Of a stretch of 64,000 nt of DNA, positions 26,558 through 32,271 are shown piece by piece. The translations under genes were made by a program, and so were the position numbers. The stretch spans positions 6,275-70,274 of the forward strand of contig JARYLZ010000007.1 in assembly GCA_029907355.1 (NCBI GenBank), written 5' to 3'. Position 1 is the stretch's first letter. Each line of letters starts with the position of its first letter. The stretch is from Bacteroidota bacterium (lineage in GTDB: Bacteria > Bacteroidota > Ignavibacteria > SZUA-365). Below the pieces are notes generated by a model, which was not told the origin of the DNA, ran no database searches, and saw only the letters and a list, made by a program, of their open reading frames with translations.

Positions 26558-26635
26558 CCTGTCGAGCTACCTGATATGCCAAGATGAAGTACGCGAATTC
26601 TTCGCGAAAAATCAATACATTGCATAGGTTTTTTA

Positions 26636-26651: not shown

Positions 26652-26748
26652 CGCAATCGAAACCTCGAGGTTAAATCGAGGGAAATGTCTGTGTTCATTT
26701 CGCTTCTCATTTCGTAGGTTTGTCCATCGTTCTCACCTCGATGAACAG

Positions 26749-28581
26749 ATGCCCATGTCGTTTCCCTTCCTTCTCATCGGACATCGCGGTTCAGGAAAAT
26801 CCGTCCTCGGGGAGCTCCTAGCCGCGCGTCTCGGCGCACCCTTCACGGATGTGGATGCTGAAATCCAGCGCGTGACGGGAACATCGGCAGCGGAATGGGT
26901 GGAGACGGACGAACCTCGATTTCGGACGATGGAATCCGAAACCGTGCGCGAAACCGTGGCGCGAGGCGGGGTCCGCGTCATCGCCGCAGGGGCGGGACTG
27001 CGAGATATCCCCACCGGTGCATTCGTCCTCTTCATCGACCGCGACGGCTGGGAGGAGACGGCGCGGAGATCCCGCGTCCGCTTGCGCCCCGGCATGCCCT
27101 TCGAAGAGGAAGTCCGGTGGATGAAGGCGAACCGCGAACCGCTCTACGCCGCGGCTTCCCACGCGCGGGCGAGGATCCCTCTCGGCATGAGCGTCGAGGA
27201 CGCCGCGGAACTGGTCGGCCGAATCGCAGACCTCGCCCTGGCATCGGCCGGTAGCCCGGCCTTCCGTCGAACATGGCTCGTCGTTCCGTCGGCAGCGACA
27301 CTCGAGCGATGCGCCGGCGACGTCCGCTTGTTCGGTCTGGCAGGTCTCGAGATCCGCAGCGACCGCTTCTCCAAGGTTCCCGACACGGACGCCCCGATTC
27401 TCGCTTCGCTTCGGGACGCAAATGCGGGCTTCCTCGCCTCCGCCGGGCGGGCCGCGGCGATCGACTGCGACGTCGCGTCGGCCGCTGCGGCGGATCTTTC
27501 GCATCTCGAACCGCGGACACTGGTCGTCTCGTCGCACCCGAAGGATGTGGATCAGGAGTACTTCGACGCGATGGTCGCCGCGGGGCACGCGGTGACGGCA
27601 CGCTTCCCCGAATGGAAGGAACATCTCGTTTTCAAATTCGCCCCTCTCGTGAAGTCGTGGGTGGAACTCCGATTCGCGTACGAGTTGTGCCGCGTTTTCC
27701 GCAAACGGGGGGGGAAGGTCAGCTTTCTTCCGCAGGGCAGGCGGTGGGACTGGATGCGGGCATTCCTTTTGTGGAATGGGAACGATCTCAATTACGTTTC
27801 CCCCGGCACCGCTCAGGCGTCCTTCGCGCCTCCGCCGCTGGAATATTTCCTCCCTCACGCGGCCGGACCTGCCCCGAGGGCAGTCTGCGGTGTCATCGGC
27901 GACCCCGTCGATGGGAGCGCGGGGGATATCGTACACAGGCATTGGAGCATCCGTGAGGACGGCGGCGCCTGTGCGTACGTGAAGATCCCCGTGCCGGCCG
28001 ACGAGCTGGAACACGCGCTGTACTTCCTGATGAAACTGGGTTTCCACGGCCTCTCCGTCACATCCCCCTACAAGGCGGCTGTTATCCACTCGAATTTCGT
28101 CACGAGCCCTGAAGGCCTCCCGTCCGGGAACACCCTCACCTTCCGCGATGGGGGGTGGTCGTTGAGCGACACGGACCGTCTCGGCATGGAGGCTGCACTC
28201 GAGGAGTTCGAGCGCCGCGGCGTTTCGCCCGGCCCTACGGCCGTCTTCGGGTGCGGCGGTGTCGCTCCCGCCGTCGTCGACGCCTTGGAGCGCCGCGGGT
28301 GGGTTCCCGTTCGGCAGACGAGCGCGCGCGAAGGCTGGGGGGACCTCCGCGGCATGACTTTCACACTGATCGTCAACGCCGGCAGGGAGAGTACACATGT
28401 GTACGACAGGCCCCCCTCCGCGCATGCCTGGCTCGATCTCGCGTACCACGGCATCGAGCGCATCCCGGAAGGGATCGAACACTACCAGAACGGGTGGCGT
28501 TTCTTCCTTGCCCAGGCATACGCACAGAGGAAGGTGTGGGGGTTCGACACACGAGAAACGGACGAAGAATGCAAGACGTGA
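26749..28581 (+). CDS. Trifunctional shikimate kinase / 3-dehydroquinate dehydratase (type I-like) / shikimate dehydrogenase fusion (AroK-AroD-AroE)
   Basis: Start at MPMSFPF; the track ORF starts 55 codons upstream. The N-terminal P-loop LLIGHRGSGKSVLGELLAARLG is a shikimate-kinase-like domain. The middle block resembles a type I dehydroquinase. The C-terminal region carries SDH motifs: GVIGDPVDGS..., GLSVTSPYKAAV, NTLTFRDGGWSLSDTD and the Rossmann GCGGVAPAVV. Confidence 0.75.
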   Translation: MPMSFPFLLIGHRGSGKSVLGELLAARLGAPFTDVDAEIQRVTGTSAAEWVETDEPRFRTMESETVRETVARGGVRVIAAGAGLRDIPTGAFVLFIDRDGWEETARRSRVRLRPGMPFEEEVRWMKANREPLYAAASHARARIPLGMSVEDAAELVGRIADLALASAGSPAFRRTWLVVPSAATLERCAGDVRLFGLAGLEIRSDRFSKVPDTDAPILASLRDANAGFLASAGRAAAIDCDVASAAAADLSHLEPRTLVVSSHPKDVDQEYFDAMVAAGHAVTARFPEWKEHLVFKFAPLVKSWVELRFAYELCRVFRKRGGKVSFLPQGRRWDWMRAFLLWNGNDLNYVSPGTAQASFAPPPLEYFLPHAAGPAPRAVCGVIGDPVDGSAGDIVHRHWSIREDGGACAYVKIPVPADELEHALYFLMKLGFHGLSVTSPYKAAVIHSNFVTSPEGLPSGNTLTFRDGGWSLSDTDRLGMEAALEEFERRGVSPGPTAVFGCGGVAPAVVDALERRGWVPVRQTSAREGWGDLRGMTFTLIVNAGRESTHVYDRPPSAHAWLDLAYHGIERIPEGIEHYQNGWRFFLAQAYAQRKVWGFDTRETDEECKT

Positions 28582-28751
28582 CCGGAACCGTCGAACAGCA
28601 TCACGGAGTTCGAGCCTATGAGGACTCAGGCGGGCCGAAGCAATTCCCGCAACGACACGCGGTACCACGGGTACTGCCAGAGAGGATCGAAACGGTCGTA
28701 TCCCATCCCATGAAGCATTGAACGGGAGAAAAGGCGGAGGAGGGATTCTAT

Positions 28752-29768
28752 ATGCGTGGGAACAGTTTCGGGGAATTCCTCGTGCTCACGGGTTTCGGAG
28801 AGTCGCACGGTGCGGCGGTCGGGGCGGTGGTCGACGGCTGTCCTGCGGGTATCCCGCTCGGCAGAGAGGATTTCGCGGCCGCACTCCGGCGGAGGCGGCC
28901 CGGCTCTTCGCCGCTCGTAAGCGGGCGGATGGAATGCGACGAGCCGGAAATCCTCGGCGGTATTTTCGAGGGTCGGACGCTCGGAACCCCGATCGCGGTC
29001 ATCGTGCGCAATATCGACGCGCGGAGCGACGACTACGAGCGGGGCATCTACAGGCCGGGCCATGCGGACAAAGTCTGGGAAGAGAAATACGGGATCCGCG
29101 ACTACCGCGGCGGCGGACGCGCTTCCGGACGGGAGACCGTCGCGCGCGTCATCGGTGGCGTGGTCGCGGAAAAGATTCTCCCGAGCAGCGTCCGCATCGT
29201 CGGTTTCGCGCGGAGTATCGGTCGCATTACCGCCGTGGACATCCCCGATGAGCTGACGCGGGAAATCGTCGACCGGTCCCCAACCCGGTGTCCCGACCCT
29301 TCGGCCGCCGCACGCATGGAGAAAGACCTCCTCGAGTGCAAGGAAACCGGAGACAGCCGCGGCGGCGTCGTGGAACTGCGCGTGGACGGCGTCGCCCCTT
29401 CCCTCGGGGAACCGGTGTTCCGGAAAGCGAAGGCGCTCCTGGCCTCTGCCATGATGAGCGTCGGCGCCGTCACGGGCGTGGAACTCGGCGACGCATTCGA
29501 CGAAACCCGTCTGGACGGGTTCACGTACCATTCTCGGGGGGGCGAGGCCGCGGCACATACGCACGACGCCGGGATACTCGGCGGAATCACGACCGGCGGC
29601 CGCATCGTGCTCCGTTGCGCGGTGAAACCCGTTTCCACGATCGGCGAGACAGCGAAGAGAGGCAGGCACGACCCTTGCATCGTGCCGCGCATCGTTCCCG
29701 TTCTCGAGGCCATGACCGCCCTCGTACTCGCCGATCTCACCCTCGCAGCCCGATGCGACAGGGCATGA
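28752..29768 (+). CDS. aroC: Chorismate synthase
   Basis: The N-terminus MRGNSFGEFLVLTGFGESHG and the internal GRSSARETAARV-like block (GRASGRETVARV) and C-terminal region are typical of AroC. Confidence 0.9.
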   Translation: MRGNSFGEFLVLTGFGESHGAAVGAVVDGCPAGIPLGREDFAAALRRRRPGSSPLVSGRMECDEPEILGGIFEGRTLGTPIAVIVRNIDARSDDYERGIYRPGHADKVWEEKYGIRDYRGGGRASGRETVARVIGGVVAEKILPSSVRIVGFARSIGRITAVDIPDELTREIVDRSPTRCPDPSAAARMEKDLLECKETGDSRGGVVELRVDGVAPSLGEPVFRKAKALLASAMMSVGAVTGVELGDAFDETRLDGFTYHSRGGEAAAHTHDAGILGGITTGGRIVLRCAVKPVSTIGETAKRGRHDPCIVPRIVPVLEAMTALVLADLTLAARCDRA

Positions 29769-29901
29769 TGCGAACGAAGGGAGTTCCCCCTCGACACGTG
29801 GTCTCTTTCCGCTGTTTCCGAAACCTGTTCGAGCGAACGACCATGGATACCGACCCAGCGCTTTTCCATCCCCGACGGCGCCGTCTCCACCGGGAGGAGA
29901 C

Positions 29902-32271
29902 ATGCTGGAGATGCGGATGATGACGCACGCCGACGTCATCCGGGTGGCGCATCTCTCGGACGTCCCGTTCGACGAATCATGCGTGGTCTTCGCGGACCGC
30001 CGCCTCCCAAACGAATTCCTCAGCCGCCTGCCCGACCCGATCCTCGTCGAAGGCGGTGAAACGCTCAAGACGCTCTCAGAAGTCGAAAAGCTCGCGGATC
30101 TCGCGACCTCCCGGCGTTCGACGAGGCCGATGACGCTCGTTGCGGTCGGCGGCGGTTCCGTCGGAGACGCCGTCGGGTTTCTCGCGAGCATCCTGTGGCG
30201 AGGCGTCGGCCTGCGGCACATCCCCACGACACTCCTTGCCATGGCCGATTCGGCCCACGGCGGCAAAACGGCGATGAACACGATGGGAGCGAAGAACCAG
30301 CTCGGGACGTATTACGAGGCCGAGCGCATCTATATCGTGGAGGAATTCCTCGCGACGCTGTCGCCCGCCCAGCGGCGCGATGGATTGACAGAGATGCTCA
30401 AGGCTCTCATGATCGCAGGGACCGAAACCATCCGCCGGCTCACCCCTGAGGACATCGAGGCCCTATGCTTCCTCCCTTACGAATCCATCGCGGCGCACCT
30501 CCGGCCTCTCCTCGACGAGGCGATCCGCATCAAGCGGGACATTGTCGCGGCGGATCCCCGCGAGGAGCGCGGGATCCGCACCGTTCTGAATCTCGGCCAC
30601 ACGCTCGGCCACGCTTTGGAAACGGCCTCCCGCGTTTCCCACGGTACCGCCGTCGCGTGGGGGTTGGCCGCGGCGCTCGAACTCTCGGCCGCCGGGGACC
30701 TCCGCGGCGATGTCCGTTCCTCGCTCGATGCCCTGTTGTATCCCTTGCTTCGCCCGATACCCTTCCCGTCGGGCGACGTCCTCCGTCAGGCAATGGAGCG
30801 CGACAAGAAACGGCAGGGCGGTGTCATACGCTCCGTCCTGCTCAAGGATGTCGGACAGCCCGCGATCGTCGAGCACCTCACGAGCGGGGAATGGGTCTCC
30901 GCGTTCCGCCGCGTGTACGATCGTTTTGTCGGCACACCCGTCGTCGCCCGGCTCCGCGACCCGCGGCGCGTTCTCATCCCGATCGGTGCGGGGAAATCCG
31001 AACTGAACCGCGCACTCGTCATCGCCGCCCGGCGACCGGGCGCCACGCGCATCGTCGGGCACAGCGACTGCGACGACGTACGCTTCTGCGCCGCCGGTAT
31101 CAGCGCCCTCGGTTTTCCCTTCGAAGAATCGCCGGAAGGCTATGCATTCGCTCCTTTCGCACGGCGGACGGCGACACAGACGGCTGCGCCGCGGCGGGTG
31201 TTTTGCGGCGAGGGCGGAACGACGCTGCGTTTCCTCCTCGCCCTCGCGTCGACGAGCGCCAGGGAAACGCGACTCTTCTGCGCGCCGGCTCTCCTCGCCA
31301 GGCCTCACGGTCCGCTCATCGACGCCCTGCGGTCGGGCGGGGCCGAAATTGAACGTTTCGACGCTGCGGACGGGAGCGGTTTCCGGGTCCGCGGGTGGGA
31401 ATCGATGCCCCCCCACCTGGAGGTCGATGCGTCGCTCTCCTCGCAGTATGCTTCCGCGCTCGCCCTCCTCGCTGCGGGTGCGGAATCACCCTTCACGCTT
31501 AAAATCTCCGGGAACGTGGCGGAAGGGTCTTTCTTCGACTTGACGCTCGCGATGCTCGCGCATGCGGGCGTCGAAACCATCCGAACGGGGGACCTCGTTG
31601 CGTTCAATCCGACGGAACGCCTGCGGCAACCGCTCGAGATCGCCATCCCACCAGACGCAAGCGCTCGTGCCGTATGGGAAACGGCACGGTATTTCGAGCA
31701 CCCCCTCCTCCTTCCCGATACGGACTCGATTCACCCGGACGCTGCGATCGGTTCTCTGCTCGAAGCGATCGTCGCGGGACAGAGGGGAGGGGAAATCGCG
31801 CTCGACTGTTCGAAGACGCCGGATCTCGTCCCTCTCCTCACCATAGCCGCCCTCCGCTCCTCGAAACCGGTGCGCATCACGGGTGCGGCCAACCTGCGCT
31901 GGAAGGAATCGAACCGTCTCGAAGGGTTGGTTTCTTCGCTCGCCGCCCTGAATATCGAGGTCCGCGCTACCGTAGACGGTGTCTTCATCCCGGCGGGTGC
32001 CGCCCTGTCCATAAATCCTGAGCGCTTCGAGACACACGGCGATCACCGGCTGGTGATGGCTGGTCTCCTCCTCTCGATGCTCACCGGGGAAGTGGAACTG
32101 AGCGAAGCCTGGTGCGTCACGAAATCTTACCCCGAGTTCTGGGACCATGCCCGGATGGCGGGCTGGAGCGTTCGGCCGGTGCACGCCGAGGCATCTTCCA
32201 GAGACAGTCGCGCAAGCAGCGGGGTCGACCAGACATGGTCGTCGCACCCGCCAGGGGAACGGGAGCGCTGA
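29902..32271 (+). CDS. Bifunctional 3-dehydroquinate synthase / EPSP synthase fusion (AroB-AroA)
   Basis: The N-terminal half carries DHQ synthase motifs (VAVGGGSVGDAVGFLASILWRGVGLRHIPTTLLAMADSAHGGKTAMN). The C-terminal half carries EPSP synthase motifs (GEGGTTLRFLLAL, LLARPHGPLIDAL, KESNRL, HRLVMAG). Confidence 0.8.
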   Translation: MLEMRMMTHADVIRVAHLSDVPFDESCVVFADRRLPNEFLSRLPDPILVEGGETLKTLSEVEKLADLATSRRSTRPMTLVAVGGGSVGDAVGFLASILWRGVGLRHIPTTLLAMADSAHGGKTAMNTMGAKNQLGTYYEAERIYIVEEFLATLSPAQRRDGLTEMLKALMIAGTETIRRLTPEDIEALCFLPYESIAAHLRPLLDEAIRIKRDIVAADPREERGIRTVLNLGHTLGHALETASRVSHGTAVAWGLAAALELSAAGDLRGDVRSSLDALLYPLLRPIPFPSGDVLRQAMERDKKRQGGVIRSVLLKDVGQPAIVEHLTSGEWVSAFRRVYDRFVGTPVVARLRDPRRVLIPIGAGKSELNRALVIAARRPGATRIVGHSDCDDVRFCAAGISALGFPFEESPEGYAFAPFARRTATQTAAPRRVFCGEGGTTLRFLLALASTSARETRLFCAPALLARPHGPLIDALRSGGAEIERFDAADGSGFRVRGWESMPPHLEVDASLSSQYASALALLAAGAESPFTLKISGNVAEGSFFDLTLAMLAHAGVETIRTGDLVAFNPTERLRQPLEIAIPPDASARAVWETARYFEHPLLLPDTDSIHPDAAIGSLLEAIVAGQRGGEIALDCSKTPDLVPLLTIAALRSSKPVRITGAANLRWKESNRLEGLVSSLAALNIEVRATVDGVFIPAGAALSINPERFETHGDHRLVMAGLLLSMLTGEVELSEAWCVTKSYPEFWDHARMAGWSVRPVHAEASSRDSRASSGVDQTWSSHPPGERER

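Follow-up and report, generated by a model that had tools for sequence, protein, structure and literature searches.

The 64-kb window (the whole stretch of DNA that was analysed) contains a three-gene unit, KDE–aroC–BA, which very probably serves chorismate biosynthesis, its three polypeptides covering the shikimate pathway from step 2 to step 7. Five enzymes are carried by two bacterial fusion proteins, and one of these enzymes has diverged beyond the reach of standard annotation tools. No published description of these fusions was found in the literature.

Organization of the KDE–aroC–BA locus

The unit consists of three intact open reading frames on the + strand: the aroK~aroD~aroE fusion gene KDE (26749–28581; 610 aa, comprising a shikimate kinase, a diverged type I dehydroquinase, and a shikimate dehydrogenase), aroC for chorismate synthase (28752–29768; 338 aa), and the aroB~aroA fusion gene BA (29902–32271; 789 aa, comprising 3-dehydroquinate synthase and EPSP synthase). 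The original prediction placed aroK–aroD–aroE, aroC, and aroB–aroA in exactly this order, and both the frames and their domains were upheld. The sole stop codon in each frame is the terminal one, and neither fusion contains a frameshift or an internal stop, so the possibility that one of them is really two genes finds no support, the less so as both recur in dozens of independent assemblies. The KDE frame is open from position 26584, but its homologues begin at the MPMSF/MSF position, which puts the true start at 26749 or 26755.

The genes are separated by gaps of 170 nt (KDE–aroC) and 133 nt (aroC–BA), which are long for an operon and count against the three-gene-unit explanation. TAnnTTTG is the Bacteroidota-type −7 promoter consensus. 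It is fitted by TAGGTTTG (26715–26722, + strand), located 27 nt 5′ of the KDE start codon within an AT-rich divergent intergenic region and one of only two + strand matches in the entire window. TAGGTTTG is a candidate promoter of the three genes, which may be transcribed as an operon; in neither inter-gene gap was a terminator-like site or a second TAnnTTTG motif found.

The shikimate kinase domain of KDE (residues 1–165; 26749–27243, + strand) matches Pfam SKI at residues 13–139 (1.4e-15), and its top PDB sequence match is the shikimate kinase of M. tuberculosis (2.9e-10). Its Walker A residues G11, G16, and K17, as well as D34, D36, F58-R59, E62, G81, and G83, show little or no variation among 85 homologues. 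The shikimate dehydrogenase domain (residues about 381–602; 27889–28554, + strand) is recognized by Shikimate_dh_N at residues 382–447 (3.5e-8) and by the NCBIfam aroE models, the best at 7.9e-20 and every one under its cut-off. Its motifs SVTSPYK and NTL...DTD align with SVTSPFK and NTI...NTD of a canonical AroD–AroE protein; K442, D476, N461, and T462 are invariant in the 85 homologues, as is the first glycine of the glycine-rich loop G501-x-G503-G504, the other two being kept in 84 and 71 of them, respectively. With the AF2 model of KDE (pLDDT 92.8, pTM 0.92), Foldseek matched this domain to whole AroE chains, among them 5dzs with a target-normalised TM of 0.72; the top matches of the model were AROM (6hqv and 7u5s), the Candida SK–DHQase–SDH fragment 7tbv, and the Arabidopsis DHQ–SDH 2o7s, the last with a target-normalised TM of 0.68.

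The identity of aroC is given by Pfam Chorismate_synt (1.8e-101) and NCBIfam PRK05382 (342.8 bits, passing the cut-off of 321). In BA, the 3-dehydroquinate synthase domain (residues 1–345; 29902–30936, + strand) matches Pfam DHQ_synthase at 48–157 (1.9e-31) and DHQS_C at 161–303 (3.9e-23); the best NCBIfam model is aroB TIGR01357, with 237 bits, below its cut-off of 305. Against the PDB, this domain scores 131–108 bits with DHQS chains, 107 with 2-deoxy-scyllo-inosose synthase, and 72–74 with other cyclases. The EPSP synthase domain (residues about 355–760; 30964–32181, + strand) matches Pfam EPSP_synthase (5.1e-44) and NCBIfam aroA TIGR01356 (208 bits, below the cut-off of 287). Its best PDB chains are of the Vibrio and E. 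coli type (117–100 bits), followed by the S. pneumoniae type and other distant EPSPS chains (63–50 bits), and MurA is absent from the PDB matches listed. The 29-residue C-terminal tail of BA is not conserved, and homologues cover 94–96% of the query, leaving the tail unmatched.

A diverged dehydroquinase in the middle of KDE

The middle segment of KDE (residues about 172–380; 27262–27888, + strand) had only tentatively been called a dehydroquinase, and a scan for five Pfam domains had been proposed as a check. SKI, Shikimate_dh_N, DHQ_synthase, and EPSP_synthase were all found, but DHquinase_I was undetected in this segment, which had no match in Pfam, NCBIfam or PDB-sequence searches. A profile built from 22 middle-domain sequences retrieved no PDB sequence, and neither canonical AroD nor AROM among 1.84 billion proteins. 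With the HMM scans silent, structural and profile–profile evidence was needed for identification. Across 167 columns, hhalign aligned the domain with a canonical DHQase profile at a probability of 95.8% (E 7.6e-9). Like the monofunctional AroD (Salmonella 1gqn, Aquifex 2egz) it has a TIM-barrel fold, and the counterparts of Salmonella His143, Lys170, Glu46, Arg48, Arg82, and Arg213 are invariant in 85 members of the KDE family, whose residue identity to the window protein goes down to about one third. The catalytic His263 of KDE is encoded by nt 27535–27537 and the Schiff-base Lys296 by nt 27634–27636 (both + strand). The original call is thereby confirmed: profile–profile comparison, structure, and residue conservation identify the domain as a diverged type I dehydroquinase-like TIM barrel. 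It is trimmed, the helix between the first two barrel strands being absent in the AF2 model, it is strongly diverged, and it is found only within the K–D–E architecture. For these reasons it escapes HMM-based annotation, and the dehydroquinase claim would be wrongly refuted if this segment were merely scanned for domains.

Recurrence and proposed role

Near-full-length KDE homologues form 47 clusters and homologues of BA architecture (724–820 aa) more than 120, and 28 related loci were found in genomes. Many independent assemblies of two lineages contain both fusions, namely MAGs labelled Ignavibacteria/Bacteroidota and the Bradymonadales, including the cultured Lujinxingia; the fused frames are present in NCBI, JGI, ENA, and Logan assemblies and in the genomes of Lujinxingia and Persicimonas isolates. 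The locus-tag prefixes JXA28, KFF77, IH600, and KQI65 are common to KDE and BA proteins, representing at least four other MAGs. Wherever enough downstream sequence is available, aroC lies directly 3′ of KDE. The order KDE–aroC–BA is repeated in three loci (L002, L003, L014), and in some Bradymonadales-like MAGs (L019, L022) it is BA–KDE–aroC, that is, aroB–aroA, aroK–aroD–aroE, aroC, which gives the full AROM order. In L022 the BA and KDE frames share a 4-bp overlap, and menaquinone-type chorismate-using genes lie 3′ of them.

Judging from sequence, BA would convert DAHP to 3-dehydroquinate (step 2). KDE would dehydrate dehydroquinate by Schiff-base chemistry at Lys296, His263 acting as the general acid/base (step 3), reduce dehydroshikimate with NADPH (step 4), and phosphorylate shikimate (step 5). 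Shikimate-3-phosphate would return to BA for conversion to EPSP (step 6), and AroC would form chorismate (step 7). The gene for the DAHP synthase of step 1 would lie outside the examined region. Fixed stoichiometry and co-expression are the most likely benefits of fusing the enzymes, and KDE and BA possibly assemble into an AROM-like complex.

Three other readings of the locus were considered. The middle domain of KDE could be devoid of catalysis and act as a scaffold or dimerisation module, while another enzyme, of type II (AroQ) or type I and encoded elsewhere in the genome, provides the activity. There is a precedent in Aro1 of C. albicans, whose DHQase domain is inactive because the catalytic His has been lost (some Candida species have lost the Lys too) and is compensated for by the type II enzyme Dqd1 (PMC9074039); the missing helix and the failure of Pfam, NCBIfam, and PDB-sequence searches point the same way. 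However, the invariance of the His/Lys pair and four substrate-binding residues in 85 such diverged sequences is hard to explain without catalysis, which makes a dead domain unlikely. It is less probable still that the cluster is devoted to breaking down quinate/shikimate, or to a specialised pathway based on sugar-phosphate-cyclase/shikimate-like chemistry, instead of supplying chorismate to primary metabolism. AroB-like cyclases and shikimate-dehydrogenase paralogues are often recruited into secondary metabolism, aroB, aroA, and aroE fall under their NCBIfam equivalog cut-offs, and the "AroB-related sugar phosphate phospholyase" model reaches 193 bits (NCBIfam). Against this, chorismate synthase exceeds its equivalog cut-off and always adjoins KDE, true DHQS chains outscore 2-deoxy-scyllo-inosose synthase and the other cyclases, the neighbours in L022 consume chorismate, and six consecutive pathway steps are present with nothing besides, no tailoring or transport genes being seen beside the cluster in the window or in the loci with scanned neighbours (L022, L029). 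Since the source is a metagenome-assembled genome, a merger of two genes by sequencing or assembly error might also be imagined for one or both fusions, but the same fused frames in dozens of independent assemblies and in isolates, together with the confident packing of the three KDE domains in the AF2 model, render it exceedingly improbable.

Relation to AROM and other fusions

The original prediction described the locus as AROM split in two. This holds for the internal orders B–A and K–D–E, but common descent is not supported by the per-domain scores against solved structures, which place the domains no closer to AROM than to monofunctional bacterial enzymes. Shared ancestry, through a prokaryotic precursor or through an AROM gene that entered bacteria by transfer and underwent fission, would account for the identical domain order within each AROM half, the full B–A–K–D–E order in L019 and L022 with the 4-bp overlap in the latter, the match of BA residues 52–749 to residues 89–837 of AROM 6hqv as one collinear stretch across the domain junction (phmmer), and the place of AROM at the top of the Foldseek list for KDE. 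However, as similarity scores, not phylogenies, the DHQS domain reaches 131 bits with a bacterial chain vs 126 and 119 with AROM, the EPSPS domain 117 bits with Vibrio vs 105 and 100, and the SK domain 42.5 bits with M. tuberculosis vs 30; the top ranks of AROM with KDE (Foldseek) and BA (phmmer) are what additive multi-domain scoring would yield, and the KDE-type dehydroquinase profile retrieves no AROM from the 1.84 billion proteins. Shared ancestry is accordingly improbable; with no special per-domain closeness to AROM, the fusions more likely arose independently of it.

Among known systems, the bacterial two-domain fusions AroK–AroB (PRK13951, PRK14021), AroA–Cmk (PRK11860), and TyrA–AroA (PRK14806) share single domains with KDE and BA, but none has the B–A or K–D–E combination and all score far under their cut-offs; no model in the NCBIfam library searched reached its cut-off for either architecture. 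The plant and bacterial bifunctional DHQ–SDH (Arabidopsis 2o7s, 2gpt; NF006802/PRK09310) differs from KDE, which has an N-terminal shikimate kinase and a trimmed dehydroquinase domain that DHquinase_I fails to recognise; the NF006802 match is confined to the SDH part of KDE (54 bits vs a cut-off of 598). Eukaryotic AROM/Aro1 of fungi and apicomplexans (6hqv, 7u5s, 7tbv), the best Foldseek match of KDE and the best PDB-sequence match of BA, has the same five activities in the halves DHQS–EPSPS and SK–DHQase–SDH, and its dehydroquinase is likewise of type I, with a His/Lys dyad. The KDE dehydroquinase is far more diverged and not Pfam-detectable, while 367 of 390 multi-domain EPSPS proteins of fungi have a Pfam DHquinase_I match (PMC9394408). 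The domain packing of KDE is also closer to plant DHQ–SDH (TM 0.57–0.68) than to AROM (about 0.28; Foldseek), and, unlike AROM, the bacterial system is divided between two polypeptides, with aroC between them in the window.

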